Part shown: in pieces, positions 26,122 through 47,265 of the stretch
Layout: each line of letters opens with the position of its first letter
Numbering within the stretch: the stretch's first letter is position 1
Origin: Nemertoderma westbladi
Taxonomy: Eukaryota; Animalia; Xenacoelomorpha
Direction of reading: 5' to 3'
Assembly (NCBI GenBank): GCA_032718475.1
Contig: JAUCBJ010006790.1
Span: forward strand, 1-64,000
Length of the DNA stretch: 64,000 nucleotides
Translations under genes and position numbers: made by a program
The notes under the pieces: model-generated
What the model saw: only the letters and a program-made list of their open reading frames with translations
Databases searched by the model: none
Told to the model about the DNA's origin: nothing

Positions 26122-28065
26122 ATGAGTGTCTCAGACAAGGAGGCACTAGAGGACAGCTATGAGACGGCGGCTGGACCGCCGACTGACGATAGCGTCAATA
26201 TTACTGTTGACGACAATGCCGACTATGACGACGCAGCGAGTGACGCTGACGTAAGTGAACAGGAGGACGAGACAGTGACTAGTGAGGAAGAACAGCAACC
26301 TCAAGTAATAGTATTAGGATCCCCTACCGCTACTGTAAGGAAGGACTGTACGGCAGCCCGGACAGAGGTGAGTGATAGGGAGGATAGTGTAGCAGAAGCG
26401 AGAGCCCGGAGCCCGGTTTCCAGACCTGTGGGTATGGTAAGTGCCGTGGTCCCAACGGCTGTAAGGAGTACCCGTAGTTCCCGAAATAATCCTTCAAGTC
26501 CACCGAGTGTAAGTCAGGTAAGTGATAGAGAACTTGATATCGCGATAAAGAAGAAACTTCGCGCGCATGCCGGACATATAACTCGGACGGCGGACAAGGT
26601 AAGGAAAATGTTAGCTGACTCAGCGAACATCGGGAGGGTAGAGTTAGTAGAGGTTAGAAGAGGATATAATTCAGCGTTATTCAAGCAGACGGAGGAGCTT
26701 GCAGTCCTAGCAAAGAAGGCAGTAGAGTCTCAGTCGAGCGACGTAGCAACGAGGATTTACGACAGGGTTTTAGCAGCCTTGTTAGAGCACCGCGAGTTAT
26801 CGGAGCGATTCCGACGAGTTAGGACGGAGAACTGGCTGCTATGGGCATCACAAGCGCAGGCGACTCAGGTGAGTGACGCTGAGTTGAGAGACTTAGTGGA
26901 GCGAGAAGAGATCCAAGATAAGGAAGAGCGCCGTTATCAGAGGGAAGTTACTAGCTGGCTGATGCAGAATGGAGTGGTTGTACCAGGCCAGGTGCTACCG
27001 ACGACGGAGAACATTCAACAGAGGACGTTGACTCCACCCGACGATGCATCCAGAGACAGCGGCGATTCCCAGGTTAGTCACGCGCGAGGGAAAGTTATAT
27101 GTGCTAGATCCCTTGTTTCTCACAACTCGGCGGAGGAGAGAAGACGCCGACTAGACGAACAGCAGGCGGAAGTTTTGCGTGCATCGGAAGCACGGAAGGA
27201 AGCTGAGCGGGAACGGGAGCGCGCACGTAAGTTAGACGCAAAGTTGCGGGAGTTGGAAGACAAAGGTAAGCGTGAGCAAGCGGAACGCGAACGAAAAGAA
27301 CGCGAACTCCAACTGAAACGCGAACAGAAAGAACGCGAACTCCAACTTGAACGCGAACGCGAAGCGAAGAAACGCGAACTCCAACTCGAACGCGATCAGG
27401 AAGCGAAGAAACGCGAACTCCAACTCGAACGCGAACAGAAAGAACACGAACTCGAACTTGAACGCGAACGCAAGGAACGCGAACTCGAGATTGAGAAGGA
27501 GCGACAGATGTTGTATGAAGAAAAGGCGCGACTGGAAGAAGAGAGCGTAGCGAGACGAGTGAGGGAAGAAGAAGAACGTAAACTGGCGCAGTTGGAAAGT
27601 GCGAGATTAAGTTTAGAGAGCGAAGAACGGACTAGGAAGGCGAACGAAATCGCCGAGAAGGGGATGCGAATGATCGAAGAATGTGGGGCGAGTGTAGGGA
27701 CAGAGTTGCGAGAACTGTTCGCACTGCAGAAGGCCGAACAGGAAGCGAGAACTCCGGCTATACGCGAGTCGACGACGACCAGAATTCCTATACCCGGTCC
27801 AGCTATTACGAGTACACGGATCGCTAAACCGTTCTCTACATATCGCACGCCAGTTGGTATTAGTGCTTCACCTATCGCGCAGGATCTACGTCATCGGAAC
27901 ACCGCACCACTATACACCGAACGAGAGAATGAAGAGTTTAGAGAAACTCCGACGGGACGAGTACTTGGCGAACCGCCAAGTTTGGTTTGCGCGGTTGAAC
28001 TTAGCGAACGCTATTTCGAACGCATTGGACATCTTGAGGACGGTGAATCTACCTCATCATGGTGA
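26122..28065 (+). CDS. gag: Element B gag, N-terminal part with long E/R/K coiled-coil repeats
   Basis: First ORF after the leader; RAHAGHITR helix typical of Bel/Pao gag starts; repeated RELQLERE; overlaps the pol frame. Confidence 0.75.
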   Translation: MSVSDKEALEDSYETAAGPPTDDSVNITVDDNADYDDAASDADVSEQEDETVTSEEEQQPQVIVLGSPTATVRKDCTAARTEVSDREDSVAEARARSPVSRPVGMVSAVVPTAVRSTRSSRNNPSSPPSVSQVSDRELDIAIKKKLRAHAGHITRTADKVRKMLADSANIGRVELVEVRRGYNSALFKQTEELAVLAKKAVESQSSDVATRIYDRVLAALLEHRELSERFRRVRTENWLLWASQAQATQVSDAELRDLVEREEIQDKEERRYQREVTSWLMQNGVVVPGQVLPTTENIQQRTLTPPDDASRDSGDSQVSHARGKVICARSLVSHNSAEERRRRLDEQQAEVLRASEARKEAERERERARKLDAKLRELEDKGKREQAERERKERELQLKREQKERELQLEREREAKKRELQLERDQEAKKRELQLEREQKEHELELERERKERELEIEKERQMLYEEKARLEEESVARRVREEEERKLAQLESARLSLESEERTRKANEIAEKGMRMIEECGASVGTELRELFALQKAEQEARTPAIRESTTTRIPIPGPAITSTRIAKPFSTYRTPVGISASPIAQDLRHRNTAPLYTERENEEFRETPTGRVLGEPPSLVCAVELSERYFERIGHLEDGESTSSW

Positions 28066-31000
28066 TCACGCCGAAGTTTTGAAAAGCGTAATAAGACGTC
28101 TAAACATGCGTTACAGACAGAAATGGCGCAAATTAGAGAATAAGTTGGAGGGCCAAGGTAAAGTATTGACACTTCAGCATATTCATGACATGATAGCCAC
28201 AGACGCAGTAGCAGAGATGAAATCAAACTTCTCAGAAGAGAATATGAGGGAGTCTAAACCTGTTACCGGTAAGTCTATGGTAAGTTTTGACGATGACAGG
28301 ACCACTGTGACATTTAACTCAGTAGACAGATATAATTCGAGTACCCCAGCCTTTAGATCAGACTCGCGAGTATGGTCAGGTGAGTGGTTAGATAGACCTA
28401 GGTTAAAGCAACAGGAGTTGCCGGATGGATTTGTAGGTTGCCAATACTGTTTACTAAAGGAGGTAAGATCTGACGACCATAAGTTAGATAGTTGCAGACG
28501 GTTCAAAGAATTAAATTCGGAACAGAGAAGAGTTCAAGTGCGGACGTTGGACACCTGTTGGGCATGTCTTGCGCCAGGCCATGTAAGGCGGCAGTGCCCG
28601 AACAGCAAGGACGGATGCATGGAATGCGGCAGACTACATCACAAGTTGCTACATGCGGATTTCCATACCCCAACGGACCGTTACTTACAGCGAAATCCTC
28701 AAAGGAAGGGGAGCAAAGAACCCGTATCGATAAGGAGGAATACGTACACTGGCATCCAAGACGATGGTTACCAACCAGGTTCGTCGGATGAGGATGGCGA
28801 GTCGAGCGCAAGAGAGGTGACCTGCCAAGGTTTCACCGCGGATAGTTCATCAACCAGCGCGCGGACGTATTTATCATCGGCCACGTCGGAAATATTTAGC
28901 GTGATTCCGGTGAAACTCACTGGAGATAAGGGATCGAAACGAATATATGTGATGTTGGACACTGCGTCCACATTATCTTATATCGACGAGGAAGTGGCGA
29001 GAGCTGTTTCTAGCTTCCAGAACGCTGAGGAGATCCAAATAGAGTTGAAGTCTATGCATGGGGTAGGAGACCTCAAGGGACACAGAATTTCGGTAGAACT
29101 AGACTCCCTACTTCCGAGAGACCAACATACTCGACAAGAACAGAAAGCTTTGCCATTGGACGGATTTAAGTGTCTAGCTATGAAGGGATTCGGCAGGCAG
29201 TTAGGTAAGGTGCCGCCGATGAGTCCCATAGCACAGGAGTATTTTGACAAGCTCAGGATACCCAGACACCAGGTAGGTTATAGGAATGTTTCTATGTTGA
29301 TTGGTGCAGAACAGCTGATCGCACACCAGATATGGGAAACGAGACCAGCTGAGCCGCATGTCAATGGACCACATGCCCATAGGACCATACTAGGTTGGTA
29401 TACACGAGTACCCATGTCTTATGAGTTTACAGGTGGCGACAAGCCAATGAACAGATACGATGAATTACAGCCTATAATTCAACCACCGTTAGTAGAACCA
29501 CCAGACATAGACGAGTTTAGGAGAACCTGTATTGACCACTATAGTGACTTTAGCGAGTCAGACGAGGAGTTGATTCCCGATAATGTTAGGTTGTCGGAAC
29601 CACTTCATAATGACCGGACAGATAGTGAACCCGAGGACTACTGTTATCAGACCCGTGGGTCTGGTTCAGCGGCCCACGCTACCTATTTGACTAACGTTTT
29701 GACTTATACAGACATAGTGGAGGGTCAAGTGGCTAAATATCGAGACCTAGACATTTTCCAATACAGTGAGGAGGAATTACAAAAGGAATTGATACGCCAG
29801 GACCTCGAGACAGGAGCTAGAACCGTCGAATGGCTGGATAGGGACGCAATGGAACCCGGTGGATATGACCTAGCCATGTCTACTGATGAGAAACGGTCGT
29901 TGGAGATGATGGAAGATACCATACGTCTACTACCGACTGGACATTTTGAAGTTGGAATGTTGTGGCGTCGACAACCACCTAAGTTGGAGAACAACTACAA
30001 CTTAGCCTTGAAAAGATTGAACGGAGTAAGGGCTCGGTTGTTGAAGAATCCGGACATTAGGGAGAAGTATTGCGCCCAGATCAACAACTATTTCGCCAAG
30101 GGATTTGCTGGGAAGGTAGAGGACCCTGACTTAGTGACAGACCAGACTTATTACCTTCCACACCACTATGTGACTCACCCTGACAAGCCAGACAAAGTCC
30201 GAGTAGTCAACGACTGCGCAGCAGTCTATAGAGGTATGTCCCTGAATTCAGAGTTGATGGATGGTCCCAACCTGAACAATTATTTGATTGGAATACTGTT
30301 GCGTTTTAGACAGCGGCGATTCGCATTTACTTGTGACATCGAGGCGATGTTCCACCAGGTAAGAGCATGTAAGGCAGACCAGGATAGCCTTCGCTTTCTC
30401 TGGTTTGAGAATGAAGACTTATCCGGCCCAGTGGTTACATACCAGATGTACGTTAGGATATTTGGCGCCCGCGATAGTCCAAATGGCACGCTGTTCGTTT
30501 TAAAGAAAACGGCAACAGCCCAGATTGGTAAGTATCCAGTAGAAGTAATCGAGTCTATATTGAGAAACTTCTATATGGACGACGGATTGGTGTCCAAGGA
30601 CACAGCGGAACAAGCCATAGAAGTGGCTCACGGCCTACAGGAGTGCTTGGCTACAGGGGGTTTTCCTCTAACCAAGTTCACTACGAACTCGGAGGCCCTA
30701 TTAGAGTCGTTCCCGGTAAAGGATCGCGGGAGCGGAGACATAGAATTGGGGGTAGAACCAATCCCCATGGCGCGAGTACTGGGACTCGCTTGGAACCCGA
30801 ACTCAGATAAGTTCCAGGTAAGCGTTAGATTTGAGCCCAGTAGCCCAGACAAAGTTTTGACTAAGAGAATTTGCTTATCGACATTGAGTAGACTATTTGA
30901 CCCGATGAACTTTATCAGTCCGGTTATATTACAGGCACGAGCGTGCATGAGGAAAATTTGGTTGTCCGACTTAGAGTGGGACGAACCAATATCTCCTATA

Positions 31001-32026
31001 CATGCAAAGCAGTGGAGGGAGTGGGAAGCCGAGTTGCATCTATTGAAAAATATAGATGTACCCCGTTCCTACTTTCCGAATCAGCTGGTATTCCCAGCTG
31101 ATTTAGAGCTCCACCTATTTAGTGACGCAAGTGACACCGGCTTTGGTATGGTAGCCTACCTTCGCCGAGAGGTAAGTCAGGACAAGTTTGAGACGGCTTT
31201 TGTGACTTCTAGATCAAAGACAATGCCGGTCAAATACATGACTGTCCCTCGTGCAGAGTTACAGGCGGCTGTAGTTTCGGTCGAGGTAAGTAAGCAAATA
31301 ACTGAGGAGTTAGACACGACATTGACCTTATTCTATTGGACGGACGCATCCTTGGTGTTAGTATACATTGCGGCCGACAATATTGCACTAAAGACATTTG
31401 TGGCCAATAGACGCGCTCAGATCGTTGATTTTTCGACGAAGGAACAATGGAGACATTGTCCGGGAGTGTTGAACCCGGCCGACATAACTTCGAGAGGTGC
31501 AATGCCGGCGGAATTCTGTCAGGAAGAGTCGCAGGAGTTTTGGTTGCATGGACCTGATTTTCTAACGAGGACACAGGAACATTGGCCAGAGCGACTAAAG
31601 ATTGTGACCAATCCGATGCCTGAAGATGCAGAAGTCAAGGTGGAGAAAGTCTCTAAGTCGAAGTCTAAAGCCAAACTCAAGTCATTGGAGCGGCCTGAAA
31701 AGTCATTGGAGCGGCCTGAAGAGTCATTGGAGCGGCCTGAAGAGTCATTGGAGCGGCCCGGAGACCTGTCAGACCAACAGACTTACGTGACTACTAGGTC
31801 AGGAAGGGTAAGTTACGACGTAAAACCACCCTTACAGACTAGACGACAGTCACAGTTGGTAAGTGACGGACAGAAAATGACCGACACAATGGATCCTTTG
31901 GTTTCCAAACCTGTGGGTTTTGATTCGAAACTTCCATTAGTTAGCGGACAACCGTCGCTGGCATTAGAGTCATGCAGTATTTATGACAAATTACTAAATT
32001 CGTCTGCCTCTTGGCTGACAATTTGA
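27854..32026 (+). CDS. pol: Element B gag C-terminus (3 Zn knuckles), protease, RT and RNase H
   Basis: CQYC..H...C / CWACLAPGH...C / CMECGRLHHKLLH; LDTAS protease; YYLPHH, KVRVVNDCAA, DIEAMFHQV, FYMDD; FSDAS, PRAELQAA, WTDA, NPADITSRG; the ORF-track start codon is probably not real. Confidence 0.93.
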   Translation: MVLVLHLSRRIYVIGTPHHYTPNERMKSLEKLRRDEYLANRQVWFARLNLANAISNALDILRTVNLPHHGDHAEVLKSVIRRLNMRYRQKWRKLENKLEGQGKVLTLQHIHDMIATDAVAEMKSNFSEENMRESKPVTGKSMVSFDDDRTTVTFNSVDRYNSSTPAFRSDSRVWSGEWLDRPRLKQQELPDGFVGCQYCLLKEVRSDDHKLDSCRRFKELNSEQRRVQVRTLDTCWACLAPGHVRRQCPNSKDGCMECGRLHHKLLHADFHTPTDRYLQRNPQRKGSKEPVSIRRNTYTGIQDDGYQPGSSDEDGESSAREVTCQGFTADSSSTSARTYLSSATSEIFSVIPVKLTGDKGSKRIYVMLDTASTLSYIDEEVARAVSSFQNAEEIQIELKSMHGVGDLKGHRISVELDSLLPRDQHTRQEQKALPLDGFKCLAMKGFGRQLGKVPPMSPIAQEYFDKLRIPRHQVGYRNVSMLIGAEQLIAHQIWETRPAEPHVNGPHAHRTILGWYTRVPMSYEFTGGDKPMNRYDELQPIIQPPLVEPPDIDEFRRTCIDHYSDFSESDEELIPDNVRLSEPLHNDRTDSEPEDYCYQTRGSGSAAHATYLTNVLTYTDIVEGQVAKYRDLDIFQYSEEELQKELIRQDLETGARTVEWLDRDAMEPGGYDLAMSTDEKRSLEMMEDTIRLLPTGHFEVGMLWRRQPPKLENNYNLALKRLNGVRARLLKNPDIREKYCAQINNYFAKGFAGKVEDPDLVTDQTYYLPHHYVTHPDKPDKVRVVNDCAAVYRGMSLNSELMDGPNLNNYLIGILLRFRQRRFAFTCDIEAMFHQVRACKADQDSLRFLWFENEDLSGPVVTYQMYVRIFGARDSPNGTLFVLKKTATAQIGKYPVEVIESILRNFYMDDGLVSKDTAEQAIEVAHGLQECLATGGFPLTKFTTNSEALLESFPVKDRGSGDIELGVEPIPMARVLGLAWNPNSDKFQVSVRFEPSSPDKVLTKRICLSTLSRLFDPMNFISPVILQARACMRKIWLSDLEWDEPISPIHAKQWREWEAELHLLKNIDVPRSYFPNQLVFPADLELHLFSDASDTGFGMVAYLRREVSQDKFETAFVTSRSKTMPVKYMTVPRAELQAAVVSVEVSKQITEELDTTLTLFYWTDASLVLVYIAADNIALKTFVANRRAQIVDFSTKEQWRHCPGVLNPADITSRGAMPAEFCQEESQEFWLHGPDFLTRTQEHWPERLKIVTNPMPEDAEVKVEKVSKSKSKAKLKSLERPEKSLERPEESLERPEESLERPGDLSDQQTYVTTRSGRVSYDVKPPLQTRRQSQLVSDGQKMTDTMDPLVSKPVGFDSKLPLVSGQPSLALESCSIYDKLLNSSASWLTI
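31681..31760 (+). repeat. 21-bp in-frame tandem repeat x4 (SLERPEE) in the RH-IN linker
   Basis: GTCATTGGAGCGGCC at 31681, 31702, 31723, 31744. Confidence 0.9.
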
Positions 32027-33568
32027 AAAAGAACTGCGTGGTTAAGCCGATACGTTTCGTACCTTTGTTTAAAACATTCGAAACATTTGAGAGAACCATT
32101 GAGCACCAATAGTGAGCGAATTCGGAAATTGAAACAACCTCTGACAGAGGATGAGATTGATCAAGCGGAATTAAAGCATTTGAAACATTATCAAATGTGT
32201 GCCTTCCCGAAAGAATTCCATCTATTATCGGCTCATCGACCAGTTCTCTATAAACCCCTTAGAAAATGGAGTCCATTAATCCATAAGGATTTAATTTGTC
32301 ATAGATCGAGAATCCAGACTGTCGACATAAACTCACAGTTTCGGTTCCCAGTGATAATCCCTAGTCACCCAATAGAATTGCAAAGAGCGATTCTATGGGA
32401 TATACATAAGAGGTTGCATCACGCGGGAAAGTTACACTGTTTGTCGGCAGCGAGACAGCGATTCATTCTATTGCAGCCAAGCAGGGCAGTTGGCACTATG
32501 TACGACGCCTGTCTGGTTTGCAAGAGAGTGAACGCCAGAGTATTGGAACAGGAGATGGCTGAACTCCCGGAAGCGAGAGTGCAGGCATATGACCCACCCT
32601 TTACGAATACAGGGGTGGACTGTTTTGGTCCGATTGAAGCAAAGAGTGGACGGCTGACCCACAAGCGATGGGGTCTGCTACTGACATGTATGGCGAGTAG
32701 AGCCATACATATCGAGCGTGTGGCAGACATGTCGACCAAATCTCTGCTCCTGGCCTTAAAGAGATTTATGGCCAGGAGAGGACTAGTAAAGGCGTTCTAC
32801 TCTGACAAGGGTACAAACTTTGTCGGAGGGAATAGCGAGTTGAACGCGGCTCATAAAGCAGCACAGAATAAGGAAATTTCTGCAGCACTTTTGCCGCAAC
32901 GAGTAGAATGGAGATTCAATACTCCTGAAAGTCCTTGGAGAGGAGGAAGTTGGGAGCGTTTAGTTCGCTCTGTAAAACAGGCCATTGCCAAAACATTGCC
33001 TGTGAACAAACAACTTACCGACGACGAACTGGTCACAGCTTTCATTGAAATCGAGCATACCCTAAACTCGAGGCCGATAGCTATGTTGCCAGACGGTGTT
33101 GCATTAACGCCGAATCATTTGCTAATGCAGAGTCCAGCATTTCTTGTGCCGGCATCAGAACCCATTAGTGCCGACCTATATAGTCGTAAAAGCTGGAAAG
33201 TAACACAGTTTGTGGCGTACACATTCTGGGAATATTGGCGGGAATACTATCTTCCCACCATATCCACCAGAACAAAGTGGTACAAAACGGTTCGGAGTCT
33301 CCAAAAGGGAGATTACGTGTTGATAACCGAACCCATTGTCAAGAGAAAGTATTGGGAGACGGGAGTGATCTTGCACACACACCCAGACGTGCAAAACATA
33401 GTGCGCACAGTCACTGTGAAAATTAGATGCAAGTGTCCGCACCCAAAAAAGTGTAAAACTAATGGTTTACACACCTTGGACCGACCGGTCCAAGATATTG
33501 TGTTATTAGAGGAGACACGTATCGAGACGGGAGATTATAATTTGTCTCCTGCCTCAAAACAGAGTTAG
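32027..33568 (+). CDS. Element B integrase, in frame with pol after a single TGA
   Basis: HH..C..C zinc motif (HKRLHHAG..CLVC), GVDCFGP, SDKGTNF, GGSWERLV (DDE); C-terminal W..EYLP..R.KW. Confidence 0.9.
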   Translation, partial: KRTAWLSRYVSYLCLKHSKHLREPLSTNSERIRKLKQPLTEDEIDQAELKHLKHYQMCAFPKEFHLLSAHRPVLYKPLRKWSPLIHKDLICHRSRIQTVDINSQFRFPVIIPSHPIELQRAILWDIHKRLHHAGKLHCLSAARQRFILLQPSRAVGTMYDACLVCKRVNARVLEQEMAELPEARVQAYDPPFTNTGVDCFGPIEAKSGRLTHKRWGLLLTCMASRAIHIERVADMSTKSLLLALKRFMARRGLVKAFYSDKGTNFVGGNSELNAAHKAAQNKEISAALLPQRVEWRFNTPESPWRGGSWERLVRSVKQAIAKTLPVNKQLTDDELVTAFIEIEHTLNSRPIAMLPDGVALTPNHLLMQSPAFLVPASEPISADLYSRKSWKVTQFVAYTFWEYWREYYLPTISTRTKWYKTVRSLQKGDYVLITEPIVKRKYWETGVILHTHPDVQNIVRTVTVKIRCKCPHPKKCKTNGLHTLDRPVQDIVLLEETRIETGDYNLSPASKQS

Positions 33569-34338
33569 TGCTGGACGCAACTCACTTCGTATGCATTCCT
33601 CGTATGCAAATACAAGGAAATGCATAGGAGCGGGGTTGTGGTGATTTGCGTTGAGTTTTGTCTGGTGGGTATCAAAACAAAATTTTATTTTCAAAATTTT
33701 TGGAAAATTAGAAAATTTTAAAAAATTAAAAGTGAACCCAAGACAATTCCAGACGCTGTGTATAGACGCGTTTTAGAATTCGTCTATAGATAAACAGTAA
33801 TTTGAAAAGTCGTGAAGCCTGGAAAATAGCATTTAGAAACCATGGTGACGGCTATATTACGTAGGAGTGTAAATTGAGTCTAGCAACTTCCACAGATTGG
33901 TGCCAACAGTGCAACTAAGGTGCTAAAGGTTAGTAGCACCAGAGGCGTACATGGACCCCACTCAGTAGTTTGCAGGATGTGTGATGTTCGATTATCAAAC
34001 CTGTGGGTTTGGTATAGTCGAGTATTGTGGCTATAGTCCTTTCTAACTACTGTAGTTTAGTACGAGTAATGGGAGTAGTTTGGGCATCAAAAAGTGAGTT
34101 GGTCACGGCCAGTTTATCTCCAAAGTTTTTGCGCTATGCATGGGAATAGGTTAGAGGATAGTTAGTTAGGAAGAGACGGGATCTAGAGAGTCGAACCTGA
34201 ACTGCTGGAAGGCGGGGGGGGGGGGGGGGGGTTCGGGAGGTCTGTCCTTCGGCGACATCTAACTGATTTACCCACAGTGTAGTTGGTTACGTAACGGCAC
34301 TTATTGGGATATATATATATGTATATACGCGTAACATA

Positions 34339-37300
34339 ATGGAGAGGGATATTAGAGCGCAACCGCGCAGAGGATTTACTGCCAGAGAGGAGGCGGAGCT
34401 ACCATTCGCGCGACCAGGATGTAAAGACTCTAACGTTTACTACCATGGGCGGTCCGTGATGGAGCTGAACGGGAAGTACAAACCAAGTTATGATAAAGAA
34501 TTACGGAGAGAAAGAATGAGAGCGTTGGGGGACCGGATGGAAGTCTTGCGGAGAGAGTATCGCACGCGGTATCCCTACGACTTCGCTTTGGACGTGTGCG
34601 ACATTAGCGCAGATCCGGACGAGGAAATCGCACGACTATACCATATGAATATGTATTTACGACATGAGGAGCCTCTACCTGCAGTCCGAGACCAGTTCGA
34701 CGGAATGCATCTGTATCGGAGGACTCGAGGTGAGGATCAGGAGACGCTGAAAGTCTTCAGCGTGTACAAGCTCTTCTACAAGTGTGGTGAATGCATGAAT
34801 AAACAGGACGTGGCGATTCCCGACCGATTAGACGAGCAACATCCGGAACCGATATTAACGCGATGTCCAGCTCACCAATTCCTTAGATACAACGAGGGAG
34901 GTTACCCGATGAGCAACCCGATGATCAGTATCGACTTCAGCAGAAAGCGACCTCCGAGACTCATTACGCCGACCATTACGACATTAGATCCGTATACGGA
35001 GATTAAACCCTGTTCGACACCCAGTTTGATAGAGACGGCAGCAGCCATTTCGCTGTACCGAGCCTACAAGGATCTAGAGGCGCGGCGCGAAGCGGCGCGG
35101 GACTCGGGTACCAAACCCGCGGGTTTGGAGCTCTCGAGTCCCTGGACTACGTTTACTTCACCTCACCGAATGAGAAGCCTCACGCCTGAGCATCAGGACG
35201 ACATAGACGCGTTGCGGCAGGAGGAGCGAGCGGCGAAGGCGAAAGAGTTATTTGAGAACAGGATAGCGGAGTATAATAAGACCGCGGATAGACATCAAGA
35301 GGAGACGAGGAGAGTGACCGGATTTGTTCCACAGGTCGTATCTCAACCCGGACCGGTGTATTATTCCGACGGCACCGAACCTGCGATATTAGTAGATCAT
35401 CCGGAGTCGCGAGAAGCGATACGATTCTTGCCGATGGTAAGAATGGCGGACCATTGGAACGTTGACTGTCTACGGGAAGTTTTATGCGCGAAGTTCTTGC
35501 GTGATGTCCCAATGCAGATCACAGATTATGACACGTTGGATAAGATTGGAGCTCCGGGGAAGGAGAGTAAGCTATTCGGATGGTTGGATAAGTACATCAA
35601 GGTATGGGTCGCGGTGGCTACATTCCCAGACGACGAGGAGGTAGACCAGATGTGGCTGAGGAGGAAGGGTTCTTATACCCGATATGATGACCACAAGGCT
35701 ATCGAGCGCATGTGGACCCCATCAGACGAGATTCAGCGTCAGTGGAGGAAGACGGAGGAATCGCTGCAGGATTGGAGGGTGATGTTCTACGACAATGAAG
35801 GAGGGTCCCATCAGGAATGTTTGACCAGCAAGTGTATTCAAATTCGTGCGGCCGATGGTGTGACTCATGTGTTTATGCGTGTGAGGGCGGATCGAGAGAG
35901 ACCGGAGCCCATCATAACGACACAATATCGGAAAGGGAAGGATCCTAGGGAACAGATTTTGGAGGTATGCAGGCGAGGAGGTATGCACGGAGCGGAGCGT
36001 ATCGACGCCAGGATGTTACCAAAGAAAGTTAGAGAGGCTATTCTCAACCAAGATTACGTCAAGGTGGGATCGGGAGTCCAGAGCGATTTGGAGAGCGACT
36101 TCAACGCCATGACTGATCTGGAAGATAGATTGCCGAGACCGTTTGTCGACACCAAGCTATTGTTGCTATGGGCACAGGATATTGGAATTTATAGGGAGTA
36201 TCCCAACTCTGCCAAGACTGGTATGGGCTTTATAGCACACTTGTTGTATAATTGGGACTTTAAGTTAAAGACGCAAAAGAAGTATGAGGAGGCGTATGGC
36301 GAATACAACACTCCACCGGGAGCGGAGTTCAAATCCCACTTCAAGCGGCAAGCGTTAGTGTATTGGAACATTTGCGCGCCACCCCGTGCGTCGCTACAAT
36401 ATTATTTGGTGCTTGAGTCGAACACGGTGACTTGTTTATTAGCGGATATCGTTGCGCGAGTTTTGAAGTGTCATCCATTGGTATTTGGAGGAGATCAATA
36501 CGTTCGCTCGAAAGGGGGAATCCAATCCGACGTGATGAAGCGTTTCTTAACCCCGTTCTTCAACCAATCGTTAGAGAATACGTCGATGATTAGGAGAGGA
36601 TTAGCGATATTCGAAGGAGTATATCGACAGAACATCGGAGATTTGGGAGACCGACCGTCGATGGAATATCCGACGCCAGAAGCTTTGGAGAAGTGGTTCG
36701 GGAATCAAACCCGCGGGTTTGGTACTCCCTTCCACTCGGAGGCTGATAGACCTGTTAAGGAGGGCTGGCCGGAAACGTTAGTAGAGGTGTTCGGAGTAGA
36801 TCTTCCGGTGGAGAAGACATATCCGAAACGAACGCGGGAGGAAATATTGGAGATAGAGGACAAGGGCGAGGATGTTTACTTTGTTCCGGATCGACAACCG
36901 TTGACTGGAGAGGACGACATCGTATTAGACATTGGGAAGGAAGGAAGTGCGAAACCGATTGGAGACCTCATATACGAGAGGGCCTGGTTTCCACAAGCGC
37001 GTAGGTGCAAGTTGTGCGGCAGCACAAGGCACAATCTAAAGTCGTGCGACGCGGTAGTGGAGGCGGCACATAAAGTCTGTCGTTGGTGTAATGAGACCGA
37101 CCATTCGTTTCACACGTGCACCGTCTTCATTTCTCAATGTGGATATTGTGGGGTAAAGGGACATCGTAGCGCGAGATGTCAGCTGCGAGATGATTCCTTT
37201 CAAAACCATAGCGCTAACCTACTTCGTGAGATGTTAGACAAGTGGGAGAGTGTGGCGGATTACCATATTCAAGCGCAGATGCGTTGGTTACCATTTAAAG

Positions 37301-37779
37301 CGGGATATGGGTTTTGGGCGGTAGACCCATCGCATGTTGCGTACGAGCCATATCTACAATCGCTACCACAATATCAGGAGCTCATCCTAACTGCTCAAGA
37401 CCTTCCACAAAACACTGGAGTTATCGTAGTTCGAGAGTACTTCAGACAATTGAACATGGACAATAAGTACACATGGAACTTCGTTGCTATTTGCGATCGC
37501 ATCACGAAGGGTGTATTTACGGAGACTAGAAAAGTGGTACGCGCGCGAGGTGATTGGAGGATGGCGGCTATACAATACCGCAACGAATTCTTGTTGACTC
37601 ATGTGCCAGTGGGTTCATTGACCGCCGAGAGGATACAGGAACAAAGGATCGCAGCGACCACAGCGACGACCGCTGGAGCTCAAGGCTCGCGGAAAGAACC
37701 AGGAGGAGGGGTCCAAGACAAGCGTCAAGTCAAGGACGATCACTACCATTCGATACCTAAAGAGGTGAGGTCTCTATAG
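34339..37779 (+). CDS. Extra ORF of B (1146 aa): DnaQ/WRN-EXD-like 3'-5' exonuclease domain plus three CCHC zinc knuckles
   Basis: VMFYDNEGG (ExoI DxE), LPKKVREAILNQDYVKVGSGVQSD (ExoII), FVDTKLL, KTGMGFIA, LQYYLVLE (ExoIII-like); CKLCGSTRHNLKSC, CRWCNETDHSFHTC, CGYCGVKGHRSARC. Confidence 0.75.
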   Translation: MERDIRAQPRRGFTAREEAELPFARPGCKDSNVYYHGRSVMELNGKYKPSYDKELRRERMRALGDRMEVLRREYRTRYPYDFALDVCDISADPDEEIARLYHMNMYLRHEEPLPAVRDQFDGMHLYRRTRGEDQETLKVFSVYKLFYKCGECMNKQDVAIPDRLDEQHPEPILTRCPAHQFLRYNEGGYPMSNPMISIDFSRKRPPRLITPTITTLDPYTEIKPCSTPSLIETAAAISLYRAYKDLEARREAARDSGTKPAGLELSSPWTTFTSPHRMRSLTPEHQDDIDALRQEERAAKAKELFENRIAEYNKTADRHQEETRRVTGFVPQVVSQPGPVYYSDGTEPAILVDHPESREAIRFLPMVRMADHWNVDCLREVLCAKFLRDVPMQITDYDTLDKIGAPGKESKLFGWLDKYIKVWVAVATFPDDEEVDQMWLRRKGSYTRYDDHKAIERMWTPSDEIQRQWRKTEESLQDWRVMFYDNEGGSHQECLTSKCIQIRAADGVTHVFMRVRADRERPEPIITTQYRKGKDPREQILEVCRRGGMHGAERIDARMLPKKVREAILNQDYVKVGSGVQSDLESDFNAMTDLEDRLPRPFVDTKLLLLWAQDIGIYREYPNSAKTGMGFIAHLLYNWDFKLKTQKKYEEAYGEYNTPPGAEFKSHFKRQALVYWNICAPPRASLQYYLVLESNTVTCLLADIVARVLKCHPLVFGGDQYVRSKGGIQSDVMKRFLTPFFNQSLENTSMIRRGLAIFEGVYRQNIGDLGDRPSMEYPTPEALEKWFGNQTRGFGTPFHSEADRPVKEGWPETLVEVFGVDLPVEKTYPKRTREEILEIEDKGEDVYFVPDRQPLTGEDDIVLDIGKEGSAKPIGDLIYERAWFPQARRCKLCGSTRHNLKSCDAVVEAAHKVCRWCNETDHSFHTCTVFISQCGYCGVKGHRSARCQLRDDSFQNHSANLLREMLDKWESVADYHIQAQMRWLPFKAGYGFWAVDPSHVAYEPYLQSLPQYQELILTAQDLPQNTGVIVVREYFRQLNMDNKYTWNFVAICDRITKGVFTETRKVVRARGDWRMAAIQYRNEFLLTHVPVGSLTAERIQEQRIAATTATTAGAQGSRKEPGGGVQDKRQVKDDHYHSIPKEVRSL

Positions 37780-39672
37780 GGGTGTCGAAAACAGGCGGCG
37801 GCGGACTCGTGAGGGTCTGGGGGCACGTTAAATTTGGTATATAGTGCAAGGGAGTCACTGAAGGCCCTCGTGTCTAGCGAACCATGAATTGCCATGGTGC
37901 CGTGGTTCCGTCTAGTCGGCATGTTGCCGTACTGCCAGTCCTGTACACAGTAGGGGTGGTGGCATGGCGTGATTTGTGGTTCATGTGGTGTGAACTGTGA
38001 TTTGTATGTGGGCGATCAGTGGCAGTTGCTTGGGGCTCGGATGGGTTTCCTTTGACCATCAGCTGTTCCGTTTTTTTGATACTATATGTTATTGTCTCCA
38101 TGTTCAGCTGATTGGTTTTTGGGATTTGTTTGGGCCTTTGAGTTTTCTGTTGCTGTGGGTACGTGAGTACACGTGATTGTATGTATGGCCACTGCGAGTG
38201 AGTGTGGGAAACCTTGCCAGTTGGCTCAGTCGCCGCTGGTATTAGTAGGACCATATTTTACTGCGCCCTAGCATACTTTGTGCACACAAAGTTATTTTGC
38301 CCTGACGGCAAAATAAGGTACTCTCGACTCTCATGTTCTCTCTAGTCGATACAACTAGTCCCTCTCGATTTTGACACCGATTTTGTCTTTCCCGATTATG
38401 TCCTCTGTGTGTGCATGGTATGTGTCCAATTTGTGTACTTGATATTGTGAACATCTGTTGAGTACACGTGTACAGTGACTGGTAAGTGGTTACTTGTTCA
38501 GTAGCTTTTGAGCTACAGACAGTATTGTTTTTTCAGGTGAAAACGAGTCAAAATTCCATGTTGGGTAGCGCAAGCCCACATGGGACAAGACCGTCGGTTA
38601 GGCCCAAGGGCGACCTTGGTGCTCGATCGCTATCGACTGGTCCACCTGCCGGTTGACTCTCTGAGTTGGCTCAATGTACAGTCAGGCCACAGTAAGTTGA
38701 CAGTAGCCGACCATCTGGCTACACGTTCGACGAGCTGTGCCGGTGTGATCGGGGAATTGAAAATTGAACCCGGGAAGCATCGGGCCATCCCCCGGCCCGG
38801 TCTGATAATAACATCAGTCGGACTGGCCCCAGGGGTGGTGGAAAGGTGTCCGCCTCGTGGGTGCGCCTCGGGGAGGAGCCCAGAAGGACACAAGCGTATA
38901 GAAGCGCAACGATTGCAGCGTAAGGCGCAGGGAGCGTCGGAGAAGGCGCGAGCGCAACTGCATAAGGAAGAGTTGGCGGAAGCGACCACGGGAGCGCGAC
39001 AATTGGGACGAGGCCGAGGGAGAAGTACCAGCCGAGAATCTGTCGGGGCTGAGGGAACGTCGTCGCCGGTTCCGGGGAGTGACGCCTCACGGACGCCGTC
39101 AACGGAGTCGACTGGAGGTAGATTAGTGTATCTGGGAAGGGGGCGGAAGAGAGGAGCGAGCCCAAAGAACCCAGGAGCGGGTCGATAATACATTATAGCA
39201 CAGGGCGACAGACTCTAGATATATACATCATCGTCGCTCTGATGTATGTTGTAGCATTTGGAAATCTTCGACTAGACTCGTATACACTAGTTGAGCTATT
39301 TGAATTTATATTATGAAAGAGGCGAAGGAAGTGATTGGGGAGACAAACCTGCGGGTTTGGCTTACTCCTTTCACTTGCCCTATCAAATTTTTATATATTT
39401 GATTTTGTATGTAGTAATCATTATGTAGTAGAACGAAAGAGAAACAATATTTTGTAAATTTAATTTGTATGTAATAATCGTTAAACAGTGAGAGAGATAA
39501 TATTTGTAAATTTAATTTGTATGTAATTCATTATGCAATATCTATAGCAATATTTGTAAATAGTAGGACCTATAGTATCAAGTATTTAGATTGGTTGGAA
39601 GAAATTTATTTTGTTTTGTATACATCACCTTATACTCTTCTACAATTGGAGGGAAACATTGTATGATTTCCC

Positions 39673-39681
39673 TTGGAGCGG
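39673..39681 (+). promoter_or_regulatory. Polypurine-tract-like primer site of B
   Basis: TTGGAGCGG directly before the TG of the 3' LTR; A2 has TGGGAGCGG at the same position. Confidence 0.7.
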
Positions 39682-41873
39682 TGTTACGGTATATGGCGCT
39701 GTATCCATATTATTAGTCATCATGCAGTATGTAATATTAGTCCGTTATGCAGTATGCAATATTAGTCCGTTATACTGTACGTAATATTAGTCCATTGTGC
39801 AGCATGATATTTTAGATAAGGCATAATAACGCAGTGGTATTTAGGTAGGGAAATCAAAACGCCCATATATTTGAAACCATCCATTTTGTATAGTATGTAG
39901 CCCTACCTACGTAATTTTGTATTAGGATATATGTAGATAGTTCCAGGGTAGCGAGTTTATTCGGACCCTGGATTTTGTGCTTGCTGATATTAGTTTGATA
40001 GGGCTAGCATATAGGGACGCCGTCCTGGCCATTCAGCAGCCAGAGACGTGAACCATTACCATATATGGTAATAATTTGAGCAATAGGGCTACAATCCGGC
40101 CTCCTTATTGGATTAACTGCTTCCAGGTTGGTCTAATGCTAGCATGGACTGGAGAGCCAATAGGAGAGCGATTGAGTCACCCTATTGAATCATCCCATCC
40201 GGATCACCTATAAATTGGCGGTGTGCCGGTAGAGCCTATCAATCGATTCAACCTTCACTGCTGTTGTACTTGCTGAGCTGTCTCTATTCAATTTTGACGG
40301 ATTTTAGAGTATTTTTGCAATTTGATTAATTTCTTGAAATGATTTGCTAGTGCGATTACTCTTGCTTGTGTTTCTCAATTAATTCCTTCGATTACTGCTA
40401 ATTACAACTGAACTATGATTTCTACTTTTGATTAATGGTTCTATGTGATTCTTTCCTGCGCAATAATCCTAAGGGATTTCTGAGACTGTCAGACTTTGTG
40501 ATTTGCATGCGCCGCTACGGTAGCTATTAGCGTAATGGAGGGCTAAGGCGCCAGCGGGCGGTGGGCACATCGGGGGGTTGGGCGACTAAGGGAGAGCGGA
40601 GGATTCAAAGCGAGCAACGCTGGCATGGGGTCACCGTTGCGGTCGGGAAGTTAACGCTGTGGTACGCAGACCAATCGCCGGTACGGTAATTAGGGGGCTG
40701 ATGATCCAGGTTTCGTCTCTATTTAGTATTAGGGGGGCAGGAATCAGGTTAGTTAGGAGTCCTATATGTACCCGGGAGAGGCCTGCACGTATCATAACGT
40801 TTCGAACGTTGAGCGTGTAGTACGAATAGTGAGTCGCATAATTGTGGGCTATACAGTAGTTAACTGCATAATTGCGAACTGTGATTGCTGACGCTGATTG
40901 GTGTGTTACTGAAGTGTGCCTATGATTGTGAATGTTTAGGTAGGCGCTCTTTTCTCTTTGATTGATTTCTATTTCTTAGTTACAACAATTAGTTACTGAT
41001 TAGGTCAAAGTAATACGGCAATTTAGGCTATTACTAGCGAAACCTGTTGCGTGATAAATTAGAATTACGTATTCTGGAACTCTTAGTAATTAGTACGCTG
41101 TTAAATATTTGTGACTGTAATTGATTAGTAAAATTAAGAATTAGTACGCAGCATAGCGGAGAGTAGCTAAAGTAATAATTAAGAGTACTGTAAACTATTC
41201 GCGCTGAGCGGTTATTTGCATTAGCGGACAATCAGCTAGAACGCACTATTCGGTACGCACGAAACGCTAGTGATTTGCTGGCCTAAAGCCAGCTGCAGGC
41301 AATTTTAGACCCAGAGTGGTACTATCCACGAGAGACAATTACTGTACCATTTTTGATATTTTAAATATTCTCGCATTCACACATTACGTTAGAGAAACCC
41401 CCAGTATTCGCGATTAGAAAAGACGTAGGTAATAGCGTGCTTTAATAGTGATAGAATTAGGCGTAAGAATACTCTGAGTGCAAGGCCTCTCGCACTCGTC
41501 TTAAGTAAGCTTAGGGAGCCGACTCGGGTTTATTGTTTTGGTTATTCCTGCGTGGCTCATAGATTCGAACAGTTAGCTCTCTATTGAGCAATCGGTAGAG
41601 AAAGGAACAAGCGATTTTGCAGGAGTTGTGTAAAATTAGTAAATATATTAGCGGACGGCAGATTAGCGCCATCCAACGGTAAGTAGCGGTTTTGTATTTA
41701 GCAACCTTTACAATTTAGTAATATCACGCTCCTGATCCCCTTTACTTAACAGTAGAGCAGTCTTTGTGTCTTATTGGTTAGGCGAGAGCTCATTAGGTTG
41801 GCAGAAGGATATTAACGGGTATTGGTCTGTTCAACAGTTCTGCTGTTAGTATAGAGGTCGCGGTTGTTTATCA
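39682..41873 (+). repeat. Element B 3' LTR
   Basis: Copy of 19502-21693; followed by GTAGG, which matches the A-family leader sequence (compare 58642). Confidence 0.87.
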
Positions 41874-42510: not shown

Positions 42511-42865
42511 ACAATCTGGGCAGGCTTACACGGCCTTCTACTCAATATCAACTTACAGGCAAATAAAACTAACAGAAATAAGTAAACTATACAAAGGAAT
42601 GAGGGGTGATCAATCCCTAATCCCCTAGCAGCCTACAATATACAATATCACAATCGAAATAGTACTGCTGTACCTGTACTGTTGTAAGTACCGGTCCGGG
42701 TGATCAGGCAGTCAGGCCTACTGGTCACCGGTCGACCGGTACTTTCGACGACTCGATTGCTTACGCCGCAATCAGAAGTTTAACAAACTGTTATTGTTCT
42801 TACCAGAACAATATTAAACTGTATTTATTGCCTACACTGCAATCAAGAATTTTACAAACTGTTAT

Positions 42866-44079
42866 TGTTCGCGCTTTTAAGACCTTTGGCAGTTTAACCC
42901 GCCAAATCTATATGTCTTCTAGGTTATAAATCTACTTTAGCCTAGGACAAGTATTGAACACCTATAATAATTCTAACATTAGCCGAAGCCAGTCTGTGCG
43001 CGACCATTCACCCGCTGGATATACCCGGGAGACTGGATTCGGATGCTTTAATTTGATTGCGGTGCAGGCCTACCGTACTATTCGATTGATCATTAATATA
43101 TAATCTCTGACAAATATTATTCACTTTCGGGAAATATTAGAAGTTCCTTTAGGACGTGGCGCTCTATCTATTTAAACAGAGCTATGACTTACACTATACA
43201 CAACGGTATGTCTTATAGATCACCAAAGTGCATTCTTTAGGAAATGCTTTGTTACTCGGTCAAGCACACACAGACTATTGCACACAACTGCACACTGAAT
43301 TGCCGATATTCACTGATTTTAATCATATATAAAGAGAATAACAACCGACATTTGTAGGGCCTATTAAGTAGCATTGAACTCATTACAAACCACGATAATG
43401 TATGTCGCAAATTGTTATATGTAACCGGTCTCTCTAACCTTAGTGTATCAAGAAGATTGGGGTTTCGGATCGTTATCAATATTCTTCCCAATAATAATAT
43501 GTAAACGAACGATACAATTAACAACACAGTAAATAGCAGTAAATAATGCGGCGAAAAGCAGTTTACGTCAGGGTGCTTAATCAGGTGCCTGACAAGCAAG
43601 AGTACTTAACCAAAATAACAGTTTGATGATCTTATAATTAAAGACGCTCTAATGTTAGAAAACATTCCACGGCCGGTGTTCTTAGGCGTGGGGGAAACGT
43701 CAGTACTGAATCATGGGATTCTGCTGTACAGCTTTTACACAAAGGGAAAATCTCTGATTGGTCGAACTGACGTGGACACTGCTGATAGATGTCGTCATTT
43801 GAGCTGAGCAGAACAAAGAACCAAGGCTCCGTGCAGAGGCTCCACGTGTACAGCTCAGCTATTAGCTGTCGTCATAGTAACTACACTGTTTCAAGAGTAT
43901 TTCGGCTTTTGCGTCATAGAATTGCTAATTATGTCCGCTAAAGTACACATACAGAATGAATGGCCTTTTATGTCCACTAAAACACTGGTACAGTAAGGAA
44001 ACGGCTTTTATGTCCGTTAAAACACCTACAGAGTACTTTACGGGGAAAATAACCAGCTAATTCCGCAAAAGCTTTTACA
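42866..44079 (-). repeat. A1 5' LTR (1214 bp)
   Basis: On the minus strand reads TGTAAAAGCTTTT...AAAAGCGCGAACA. Confidence 0.88.
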
Positions 44080-44082
44080 GTA

Positions 44083-45130
44083 ATGGTGGACAATTCAAGC
44101 ATGGCCCTGAATCGCCTTAAAGGAATCCTGAAAAGGCTTAATACCCAACCTGACCTTAAGGACCAATATAATGAAGTAATGGCTGGGTACTTAAAAAACG
44201 GATTGACAGAGTTGGTACCAGATGAAGAGATTAAAGGATCCTCCAGAACATACTACTTACCAACACACTACGTGATAGAAAAGCGTAAGGCTGGTAAGAT
44301 GAGAGTCGTTAATGACGCCACGGCCTCCTTCCAAGGTGAATCCCTACACAGCCAGTTATACACCGGACCAAACATCTATAGCAACCTGGTTGGCGTATTG
44401 CTTAGATTCAGGCTCAGAACAAGGTGGCTTTTACATGCGACATCAAATCTATGTTTCATCAGGTACGCACACTAGACAGAGACTCTGACAGCTTGCGGAT
44501 ACTATGGACCAACAAGACACTTAATATCTCAGAAATAAACAGCCTCACGCTGAATGATGTTGACATCTTAATAATGGTGGTACGTATCTTCAGTGCAAAA
44601 GACTCGCCAGTCGTGTGCAGTGATATGATTAAGAAAACTGCGGATATGCTGGAAGATAAATATGATCCCAGTGAAATCAGTCGTCACGCCAACTGGAAGA
44701 AATCGCAAGCGTTGGCAGCACACTGGTGGAGGGTATGGTTGCACGAATTTCTGATAACACTCAGAACCCGCCGGAAATGGAATCACATTCACCGAATCAT
44801 CGCGGTTGGAGATATGGTGCTTGTCAAAGATGAACTGAAAGATCGTGTTCATTGGCCTGTGGCGCGTGTTACCAAGATTTTCCCCGGAAAAGTCGGTCTC
44901 ACCCGCACCGTGATGATCCAAACATCAAAGGGCCACTACGATCGCCCGATCCAAGCTTTATGTTTACTAGAAGCAGTTTGTGATGACGTTGTAGAGTGCC
45001 CTGCCAAGGGCCACTACGATCACCCAATCTAAACTTTATATTTACTAGAAGCAGTCGGTGATGACGTTGTAGAGTACCCTGAAAAGAAACACTACGACCA
45101 CCAAATCCAGACTTTGTGTCCTCTCAAGGA
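44083..45130 (+). pseudogene. Old Bel/Pao C, 3' part: RT N-terminus fused by deletion to the integrase C-terminus, ending in three 78-bp repeats
   Basis: ALNRL..LKRL, YYLPTH, KMRVVNDA, LLRFR, DIKSMFHQV, then WWRVWLHEFL..R.KW, WPVARV, YDRPIQALCLL; CACTACG at 44934, 45012, 45090. Confidence 0.85.
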
Positions 45131-45680: not shown

Positions 45681-47265
45681 CATTTCCAACTTGATTTCCC
45701 AACAACCTATGTACAATATGTTTGTCCCGAGGATGAAATATCTAAAAAGACAAAAAAAAGGTGTATAATGAGATAAAAAGGAATATAAAAAGGAAAAAAA
45801 TGATTTGAAAAAGAAAAAGAAAAAAAGGCGTATAATGCGATGGAAAATAAATATAAAAAGAAAATATTGAAGTGAAAAAGATAATGATAAAAAAGATAGA
45901 AATAAAGAAATACGAAAGAACGGACAAAAGAAGTCATAAATAAAAGGACATAAAAAGTAGATCTTAGTAGAAATAGGGTTGTACTGTACAGTACAACAGT
46001 AATATATATTATTACAACAAACAAATACAAACACTAAAAAACACAAAACAAACAATGGCTGTAATACCCACCACCAGGAAACAATCATACTTTAAAAATA
46101 ACTTTTAGGTAGGAGTGGGAAAAGTCCAACAATATATTATTTACAGGTTTATTTACATGGCCAATGTTGGGAGACCGGCCCCGTCCTCAAATCCCAGACC
46201 ACTACGTCACCTCGTGCGAGATCCACGCAGGCAGTGGGACATAAAGGACATAAAAAGTAATTTTGAATGTTAATTGAAAGCTTATGAATTAATGTGGAAA
46301 GTACTACTGGCCTCCAAACCAGCAATAAACCTAATTCAGCAATGCATAACAGGAAAGACAGTTGCTGAGGAATCAGTATTTCCAGACCTTTGATTTCTTG
46401 ATTTCGTAACTTTCCTATTTCACCTGCAACAAATTAACTAAATTACAGTCCCGCTCTCAAAAAGCATTCCTTTGATCAAACTTTGATGAAACATTGATCA
46501 AAATGTGCCCATAGAATAGCATTGAAAGTATATAGCAGTGACATTGAAATGACACTGATGGTATATTGAAATGACCTTGAAATCGACGGACCGAAATTCC
46601 AGACTTTCTGTCTCATATTGAAATGACATTGAAATGTTTAACAGTTTACATCTCGCTTCTGCGGCAAGCCTTTGTACTCAGATTCCCGCCGAGAACTGGC
46701 TTTTATTGCTAATGGCCAAGTCGCTATGTGATTGACATCAGGGCGACGGATGGAGCGTGCTTGATTTTGTGGATGGACATCGATTAGATTTACAAGGTAG
46801 GGCTGTATTGTGGTAGTGTCCCAGACTGAGTCTTGTAGGGCCTATTATTACACTAAACAACTAGTTCAGAAAAACTTTTTTTGGAATATTTTTGAATTAT
46901 TGCTTATTATAAATTTGTTTTAATGTTCCTTAAATCAGAATCAAGGCCAAAGACCTTCATTGGCCAGCGCGATGACTGCCGTTGCATTGTATTTTCTTAT
47001 ACAGTAATTGTTTAAATTCGACAAGCTTGCCCTCTGCCCCTGTGTCTAATTTTCATAATAAATGTAAATAAAGAAATAAATAAATCCATAAAATCTATTT
47101 TTATTTATAATTTGATTATACATAACTGCTTTGTGATCATAAAAAATTCACGTAAGTTGGAAATTGCAAGCTAGAAATGTAGGCCTACGTAATGAGCGGA
47201 CACCATCAAAAATCTTCTAAAAAATTTATGTAATTTGATTTTAATACTCTATCTGATGAGGTATT

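Follow-up and report, generated by a model that had tools for sequence, protein, structure and literature searches.

We analysed a 64,000-nt stretch of DNA from Nemertoderma westbladi (GenBank assembly GCA_032718475.1, contig JAUCBJ010006790.1, positions 1 to 64,000 of the forward strand; hereafter the window) that contains a long terminal repeat (LTR) retrotransposon of the Bel/Pao group. Between its integrase and its 3′ LTR this element holds an intact third open reading frame (ORF3). Residues 470-720 of the predicted protein very likely form a DEDDy-type 3′-5′ exonuclease domain, and three Cys-Cys-His-Cys (CCHC) knuckles follow it. By the pattern of differences among its copies, ORF3 is kept by purifying selection. 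As far as we searched, an exonuclease ORF3 is new for Bel/Pao, and it has its own motif variant and knuckle array. The type of cargo is itself known: DEDDy ORF3s have been published in LTR retrotransposons (PMC5408684), and an exonuclease with a CCHC array has been solved, namely Trypanosoma brucei RNase D (TbRND; excerpts of PMC7797062). ORF3 and its parts lie as follows.

34339-37779, + strand: ORF3, 1146 codons, intact, between the integrase and the polypurine tract
34339-35745, + strand: N-terminal 469 amino acids (aa) of ORF3, a charged, probably helical stretch for which no family was found (the large homologue searches covered ORF3 from aa 360)
35746-36498, + strand: DEDDy-like exonuclease domain with two insertions (D485, E487, D583, Y689, E693)
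37006-37047, 37078-37119 and 37138-37179, + strand: three CX2CX4HX4C knuckles, by motif match
34258-34277, + strand: candidate branch point and splice acceptor, 61 nt 5′ of the ORF3 ATG, from sequence only

An earlier reading of the window, made from sequence only, had proposed an intact 1146-residue frame between integrase and 3′ LTR with no obvious signal peptide or transmembrane segment, and both proposals held. The frame is open throughout 34339-37779 (the chance of 1146 open codons at the local base composition is ~2e-27) and has no introns. It starts 770 nt past the integrase stop (33568) and ends 1.9 kb short of the 3′ LTR. No membrane segment was found (peak 19-residue hydropathy 1.46), nor any furin-type R-x-[KR]-R site, and the N-terminus has no hydrophobic core. 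Judged by the signal peptide, furin site and transmembrane anchor of an env signature, none of which was found, ORF3 is not env-like. Its N-terminus also holds a CX2C-X23-CX2H motif (aa 149-179, 34783-34875), possibly a fourth zinc site. The spacer between pol and ORF3 contains eleven ATGs, which makes scanning from pol to ORF3 unlikely. The candidate acceptor at 34277, together with candidate splice donors at 20649 and 21499, suggests that ORF3 may be made from its own spliced message. A six-codon upstream ORF at 34319-34341, whose stop overlaps the ORF3 start (TAATG), lies beside an AT microsatellite.

The motifs named in the sequence-only reading were found at the expected sites: D-N-E at 35791-35799 (D485, E487), GVQSD at 36073-36087 (D583) and Y-x-x-x-E at 36403-36417 (Y689, E693), along with the three knuckles. 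The description as DEDD-like needs one qualification, since the fourth acid is a Glu and the motif is DEDE-y rather than canonical DEDDy. When aa 360-880 served as the query of a full HMMER scan against 1.84 billion representatives, a single protein was retrieved, P0122 (648 aa, E 1.6e-6, 27% identity), encoded on a 9449-bp contig. P0122 follows the same plan as ORF3: an exonuclease-like domain and a linker lead to three knuckles, of which the first is shortened, and then to a W...GF tail, which is also present behind the ORF3 knuckles. Despite the low identity it retains D, E, D, Y and E at the catalytic positions, and Glu stands at the fourth acidic position in ORF3, in P0122 and in a broken third member described below. 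The P0122 knuckles match retroviral nucleocapsid (E 1e-4).

Each sequence test for the domain was modest on its own. When motif letters alone were compared with 19 bacterial DEDDy domains, ORF3 matched 6 of 7 key columns, a count equalled or exceeded by 5 of 120 shuffles; P0122 matched all 7, as did one of 120 ORF3 shuffles. Motif letters alone being weak, the domain call rests on several tests together. A profile of ORF3 and P0122 matched 13 bacterial RNase D domains (E 8.9e-5, probability 59.6). A hidden Markov model (HMM) of 47 bacterial DEDDy domains gave low scores in the same ExoII region for ORF3 (7.2 bits) and P0122 (9.6 bits); each of the two outscored all of its 500 shuffles and every one of 120 pol proteins, and ORF3 ranked first among 418 window segments (E 0.09). 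Neighbours in the ESM-Atlas include PF01612 clusters (0.91 for ORF3 and 0.94 for P0122; shares of 50% and 34%), with unnamed fungal clusters ranking above them. The RNase D profile, the DEDDy HMM and the ESM-Atlas neighbours support the DnaQ-like (DEDDy) fold that had been proposed. At ExoII, K575 and D583 were aligned in 15 of 15 test alignments. At ExoI, the D-x-E motif and the conserved (L/I)Q strand (D485, E487, Q501) were in register in alignment A7; the register was unstable in other alignments, and alignment A2 was out of register there. Assignment to a subfamily failed (3.2 bits with a WRN-like HMM, 3.7 bits with an RNase D HMM), and the ORF3 profile matched PolA (probability 5) and six WRN-like domains (probability 19.8) weakly.

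A model of the domain made with AlphaFold and guided by 31 bacterial rows reached a predicted local distance difference test score (pLDDT) of 66.8 and a predicted template modelling score (pTM) of 0.66. With VIA, all 50 rows matched to this model were 3′-5′ exonuclease folds (best Z 10.9, root-mean-square deviation 3.5 over 157 residues). The WRN, EXD2, Nibbler (Mut-7), EXD1, Egalitarian, RNase D and Rrp6 group scored Z 8.5-10.9, all tied; the family labels of some rows are those we presume. In ORF3, ExoI, the IQ strand, ExoII, the D-T strand and the ExoIII helix follow one another as in this group and at the same intervals; ORF3 differs in its Glu at ExoIII and in insertions of ~45 and 28 residues. 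The structure search suggested earlier gave DnaQ-like folds in 34 of 35 Foldseek rows. From the profiles and the model we consider a DnaQ-like fold highly probable.

Several results weigh against this assignment. None of the Foldseek rows had an E value of 0.001 or better, and their TM scores were 0.22-0.41. The guided alignment was picked from many trials for having the motifs in register, which makes the model partly circular; what it demonstrates is that sequence and fold are compatible, and it is not independent proof. Unguided AlphaFold on the two sequences failed (pLDDT 34.7). The Y-x-x-x-D of ExoIII is not present, Tyr being kept and the Asp position being Glu693. The domain had no significant match in Pfam, NCBIfam, PHROG or PDB sequences, and a rotavirus VP4 match (E 0.056) was treated as chance. 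Relatives were also lacking in a word-based protein search among lengths near the query, in which ORF3 aa 360-1000 found none and P0122 found only itself, in scans of viral and metagenome contigs (no related locus), in 201 bacterial genomes and in phages (E 0.6).

Selection on the domain, a check that the sequence-only reading had suggested, gave a clear result. Contigs of four runs were aligned on 35740-36480, and 40 of the 69 differences were listed. Synonymous changes made up 34 of these 40, and 23 of 23 at a share of at least 3% in run X1; the neutral expectation of the synonymous share, for transitions, is 0.34. The p-value of 6e-11 overstates the certainty because rows share haplotypes. 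The six replacements have shares of at most 1.2% in X1, and all are on one X6 contig that also carries a frameshift and deletions. None of the 40 listed differences falls in the five catalytic codons. The predominance of synonymous differences argues for purifying selection on ORF3.

Linkage of the gene to Bel/Pao pol was examined with tblastn within the window, which revealed that the ORF3 exonuclease family has a third member, broken and divergent, behind a second Bel/Pao pol. The relevant features are these.

~61590-62560, + strand: third ORF3-exonuclease member, broken and divergent (tblastn E 4e-6), downstream of the pol of the second Bel/Pao relic
16979-18377 and 44080-45032, + strand: second Bel/Pao relic, with gag at 16979, protease at 17593 and reverse transcriptase (RT) and integrase pieces at 44089-45032
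18378-44079: Bel/Pao copy with a GTAAT duplication, holding the main element
47266-60483, − strand: Bel/Pao copy of 13.2 kb with a GTATT duplication
46446-61469: element with inverted repeats, ending in CAGT and flanked by TA, split by the minus-strand Bel/Pao copy; we take it to be Tc1/mariner-like

A two-sequence profile also found the third member (E 2.9e-9), as the best non-self match of 1981 segments. It shows YDNKG, KIGSD, FVDTQ, KTSLG and Y-x-x-x-ES-x-TV in order and with similar spacing, spread over three frames. Small ExoI and ExoIII profiles missed these motifs, which rest on order, spacing and pattern count, and no knuckles were found behind them. The RT of the relic is 43-45% identical to that of the main element, and its pol is not especially close to the main one (ranks 6 of 121 and 65 of 122). 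Since no LTR was found for the relic, the third member is assigned to it by position and strand. The DNA separating the two consists of clean nested insertions. With nested inserts removed, the ExoI motif lies ~1.7 kb behind the relic integrase, compared with 2.2 kb in the main element. If this arrangement is right, two distant Bel/Pao families would carry an exonuclease gene in the same slot.

The element that holds ORF3 has the following parts.

19480-41873, + strand: whole Bel/Pao element, 22.4 kb (~19 kb minus the nested insert), bounded by two 2214-bp LTRs
19480-21693, + strand: 5′ LTR, 2214 bp, TG...CA, 3 differences from the 3′ LTR
39660-41873, + strand: 3′ LTR, 2214 bp, TG...CA, 3 differences from the 5′ LTR
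39648-39656, + strand: polypurine tract, just 5′ of the 3′ LTR
21694-21704, + strand: primer-binding position without a TGG start
26119-28065, + strand: gag N-terminal frame with coiled-coil repeats, placed upstream of the Cys-His motifs
27698-33568, + strand: three gag-type Cys-His motifs, protease, RT (YMDD at 30572), RNase H and integrase

The pol matches Peptidase_A17 (E 3e-39) and DUF5641 (E 1e-17) in Pfam and has 738 relatives at E 1e-20 or better; PF05380 is present in all 120 listed, and the best is only 43% identical. By its pol and the order protease (PR), RT, RNase H (RH), integrase (IN), the element is Bel/Pao. The gag N-terminal frame had no Pfam match over the cut-off. The Cys-His motifs, protease, RT and RNase H occupy the frame 27698-32026, and the integrase follows in the same frame (32027-33568) after an in-frame stop at 32024-32026 that the sequence-only reading had missed. 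This stop looks private to the window copy, since contigs from three runs read differently there. Carrying it, the window copy is not autonomous. The gag/pol overlap at ~27975-27994, near which aligned contigs end or run loose, may be a second lesion or a natural overlap. The element is young, and its family has many copies: 877 and 395 contigs in two runs cover a 741-bp piece of ORF3. Some copies have internal ORF3 deletions, seen as joints.

The sequence-only reading had also raised the possibility of a self-primer, and the primer site proved to be self-complementary. No tRNA-type primer site was recognized, there being no TGG at the LTR edge (judged by the TGG start; priming by an inner tRNA piece is possible). 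The candidate pairing regions are given below.

20605-20615, + strand: candidate self-primer within the LTR, complementary to the primer site, 22 nt after TATATG (20583)
59312-59323 with 60066-60077, and 42855-42865 with 43615-43625, − strand: self-priming matches in two related minus-strand Bel/Pao copies

Positions 21694-21704 can form 9 Watson-Crick and 2 G·U pairs with 20605-20615, the chance of such a 9-mer being 0.016. The outer G·U is Watson-Crick in the other copies aligned (place 40795, at all depth in X1; 14791 of 15022 in X3). The duplex energy is ordinary, being equalled by 39% of 102 control 17-mers. Pair probabilities were 0.68-1.0 when the RNA started at 20605 and 0 when it started at 20060, the start site being inferred. 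The two minus-strand copies have perfect primer-LTR matches of 12 and 11 nt with different letters, and neither gave an ORF3 match, though both are internally deleted. Self-priming is therefore plausible on sequence grounds; because these two neighbouring copies share the primer signature, it is not tied to the exonuclease. In Tf1 and Tj1, too, the primer site is complementary to part of the 5′ LTR, and their self-priming is described in elements drawn with Gag, PR, RT and IN only; they differ in being Ty3/Gypsy elements, whereas here the loop would be ~1.1 kb and the transcript start is only inferred (excerpts of PMC4600332).

By its pol the element is filed under Bel/Pao, although it is not a typical semotivirus. 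It shares with Belpaoviridae the gag-PR-RT-RH-IN order, Peptidase_A17, DUF5641, LTRs, a polypurine tract and the position of a third gene (PMC8742986; excerpts of PMC3118150). In contrast, the family is described with lengths of 4.2-10 kb, LTRs of 0.2-1.2 kb and a primer site of 18 nt complementary to the 3′ end of tRNA-Arg or tRNA-Gly, which was not recognized here by a TGG start, and its third gene is described only as env-like (PMC8742986), whereas here it is enzyme-like. Bel/Pao elements are described only from animals, and according to the International Committee on Taxonomy of Viruses their replication is poorly understood (PMC8742986). In excerpts of a metazoan Bel/Pao survey, third genes are env-like only and the word exonuclease occurs 0 times (PMC3118150). 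Like the sequence-only reading, which knew of no such cargo in Bel/Pao, we found no report of an exonuclease there in open-access text, a search that did not cover Repbase, GyDB, subscription journals or supplements.

Comparable cargo is carried in bdelloid rotifers by Juno and Vesta, two LTR lineages that are Gypsy-like. The ORF3s of Juno1/2 and Vesta2/5 are of DEDDy type, common to Athena/Terminon (Rodriguez, Kenefick and Arkhipova 2017, PMC5408684). As in the present element, each is an ORF of its own that follows pol and is not env, carries an E in place of one D and lacks a transmembrane segment. The carriers differ, being the Juno and Vesta lineages and Penelope-like elements rather than Bel/Pao, as does the motif, DEED there and DEDE-y here (compared by motif description only), and no CCHC array was reported for the rotifer genes, compared with three knuckles here (PMC5408684). 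The rotifer ORF3 types that were sequenced (env, GDSL) showed no clear departure from neutrality, in contrast to the clear purifying selection on the present gene. As possible functions the authors weighed RNA 3′-end processing and a Mut-7-like role (PMC5408684). Elsewhere the DEDDy exonuclease is called a well-known accessory domain (excerpts of PMC6338049).

TbRND has a DEDD exonuclease followed by a CCHC finger array that raises RNA binding and cleavage, a likeness to ORF3 in architecture alone (excerpts of PMC7797062). Its structure, 7c42, matched the guided model with Z 10.3 and gave the longest alignment among the top ten (178 residues). It is a cellular mitochondrial protein with a canonical DEDD motif and four fingers after a 28-residue linker, whereas ORF3 has three knuckles ~170 residues past the domain and a long N-terminus. 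The Dada DNA transposons of Laccaria and Ectocarpus are also mobile elements with a DEDDy domain, but theirs lies inside a DDE transposase and keeps all four DEDD residues (excerpts of PMC3706591).

Our best overall reading, which we hold tentatively, is that ORF3 is a knuckle-assisted RNA exonuclease directed against host small-RNA silencing. ORF3 would encode a predicted metal-dependent DEDDy-type 3′-5′ exoribonuclease whose three CCHC knuckles would hold single-stranded RNA; the protein, probably made from its own spliced message, would most likely work in trans, with short RNAs from the host's silencing pathway as its substrates. Catalysis by D485, E487, D583, Y689 and E693 is rather likely from the sequence, the retention of D, E, D, Y and E across 27% identity favouring a working two-metal site. 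By analogy with TbRND, an RNA substrate for which the knuckles raise affinity is quite probable. The targets may be precursors of small RNAs, or sliced fragments of the element, that have unprotected 3′ ends and whose loss would dampen silencing of the family; if the enzyme is active, we give these targets somewhat less than an even chance. A host-facing role is preferred because DEDDy cargo recurs in elements that replicate differently, the Gypsy-type Juno and Vesta, the Penelope-like Terminons (PMC5408684) and the Dada DNA transposons (excerpts of PMC3706591), because most Bel/Pao elements have no such cargo (PMC8742986), and because Nibbler, a relative, trims the 3′ ends of PIWI-interacting RNAs (piRNAs) (excerpts of PMC13269885). 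The broader proposal, that an old Bel/Pao-borne nuclease family defined by DEDE-y and three CCHC knuckles is an enzymatic suppressor of piRNA or small interfering RNA silencing that aids the copy number of an oversized tRNA-independent family, we consider distinctly unlikely. On the other side of the balance, mature piRNAs have 2′-O-methyl ends that resist such enzymes. In the third member, two of the four acidic positions are occupied by Lys and Asn, perhaps as a result of decay or as the mark of a dead variant. For rotifer DEDDy ORF3s, neither copy number nor small-RNA cover showed a clear association (PMC5408684), and the Dada authors propose DNA-end processing for their domain (excerpts of PMC3706591).

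A somewhat unlikely alternative is that ORF3 is a pseudo-nuclease adaptor like Egalitarian or EXD1, binding RNA with little or no cutting and, with its knuckles and helical N-terminus, linking element RNA to transport, packaging or germ-granule sites. The non-canonical Glu ligand in all three members, the two large insertions, the ~800 of 1146 residues outside the domain and the two acids missing from the broken member would fit such a protein, and Egalitarian (Z 8.9) and EXD1 (Z 9.4) are among the fold matches; conservation of the five catalytic-position residues between ORF3 and P0122 would be unexpected in a dead enzyme. We regard it as unlikely that ORF3 is a replication helper, carried into the particle by nucleocapsid-like knuckles, that shortens the self-primer at its 3′ tail as far as the 11-bp duplex or removes RNase H fragments. 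The lack of a tRNA-type primer site, the pairing with the LTR, its Watson-Crick outer pair in other copies and the nucleocapsid match of the P0122 knuckles speak for it. The two minus-strand copies with perfect matches and no ORF3 match (both internally deleted), the ordinary duplex energy and the self-priming of Tf1 and Tj1 without such cargo (excerpts of PMC4600332) speak against it; the primer-trimming role that had been suggested is weakened by these copies and by Tf1-type self-priming.

Very unlikely, in our view, is a DNA exonuclease that polishes the 3′ ends of complementary DNA (cDNA) or proofreads reverse transcription of an unusually long element, like ExoN in large RNA viruses. The ORF3 ExoII motif, KVGSG..SD, resembles the WRN-like KVGVG...D, proofreading domains are among the fold matches, the element is ~2 times the family's 4.2-10 kb (PMC8742986), and 40-kb Terminons also carry DEDDy genes (excerpts of PMC6431247). 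However, the extra length is mostly LTR, leader and ORF3 itself, the cargo-bearing rotifer elements Juno and Vesta have short LTRs, CCHC arrays point to RNA, and the best viral fold match was not significant (E 0.097). That ORF3 is a functionless passenger, a host gene fragment captured by chance, is largely refuted and extremely improbable. The single relative among 1.84 billion representatives and the internal ORF3 deletions in some copies would agree with it, but the strong excess of synonymous differences, the lack of introns, a frame open for 1146 codons in a copy whose pol is broken and the presence of a distant member at the corresponding place after another Bel/Pao pol do not.

Exonuclease cargo thus recurs in unrelated mobile elements, and the cited literature gives no activity or target for it. 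The present case brings Bel/Pao into the list of carriers with a compact and intact module of exonuclease plus knuckles, and it adds clear purifying selection, which was not shown for the rotifer genes. Should small RNAs be what the protein attacks, it would give an animal LTR retrotransposon a counter-defence of a rare, enzymatic kind; should it instead serve the self-primer or cDNA ends, Bel/Pao replication would gain a further step.

Further features of the element were noted. At the 5′ LTR junction, 24 nt of the element's own polypurine-tract region (19456-19479) directly precede the LTR. No target-site duplication was found there, and most of the surrounding Bel/Pao copy is missing. With the duplication lacking and polypurine sequence preceding the LTR, this junction looks rearranged; it could reflect plus-strand priming that went wrong, or a tandem pair that later underwent a deletion. 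The leader holds a nested element:

22458-25555, + strand: CryptonA-like tyrosine-recombinase element with an ORF at 22970-24409 (DUF3504 E 8e-13, Phage_integrase E 2e-10)

It has imperfect inverted ends with a palindrome in each and a 100-bp tandem repeat. Between ORF3 and the 3′ LTR, at 38482-39188, an open frame of 215 codons that lacks an ATG start comes after a candidate GT-AG intron of 55 nt. The predicted product is basic and Gly-Arg-rich with no Pfam match, possibly a spliced fourth gene. Contig depth in run X6 is far above the rest of the element at 37546-39700, and in several runs joints jump from the end of ORF3 to ~38897; together these possibly mark a non-autonomous derivative. 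The summed contig depth ratio of ORF3 to pol (~0.4) was not used, as contig depth cannot rank parts of the element, and run X4, only guessed to be RNA, had low cover along the whole element and was uninformative on transcription.

Elsewhere in the window, positions 1-843, with a GNAT acetyltransferase gene, match a contig from the genome of an uncultured Burkholderia at 99.2% identity, with an abrupt switch after 843 to AT-rich eukaryote-like DNA, which may be a record junction or contamination. A non-LTR reverse transcriptase fragment lies at 7669-8472 (RVT_1 E 4e-10, DUF6451).

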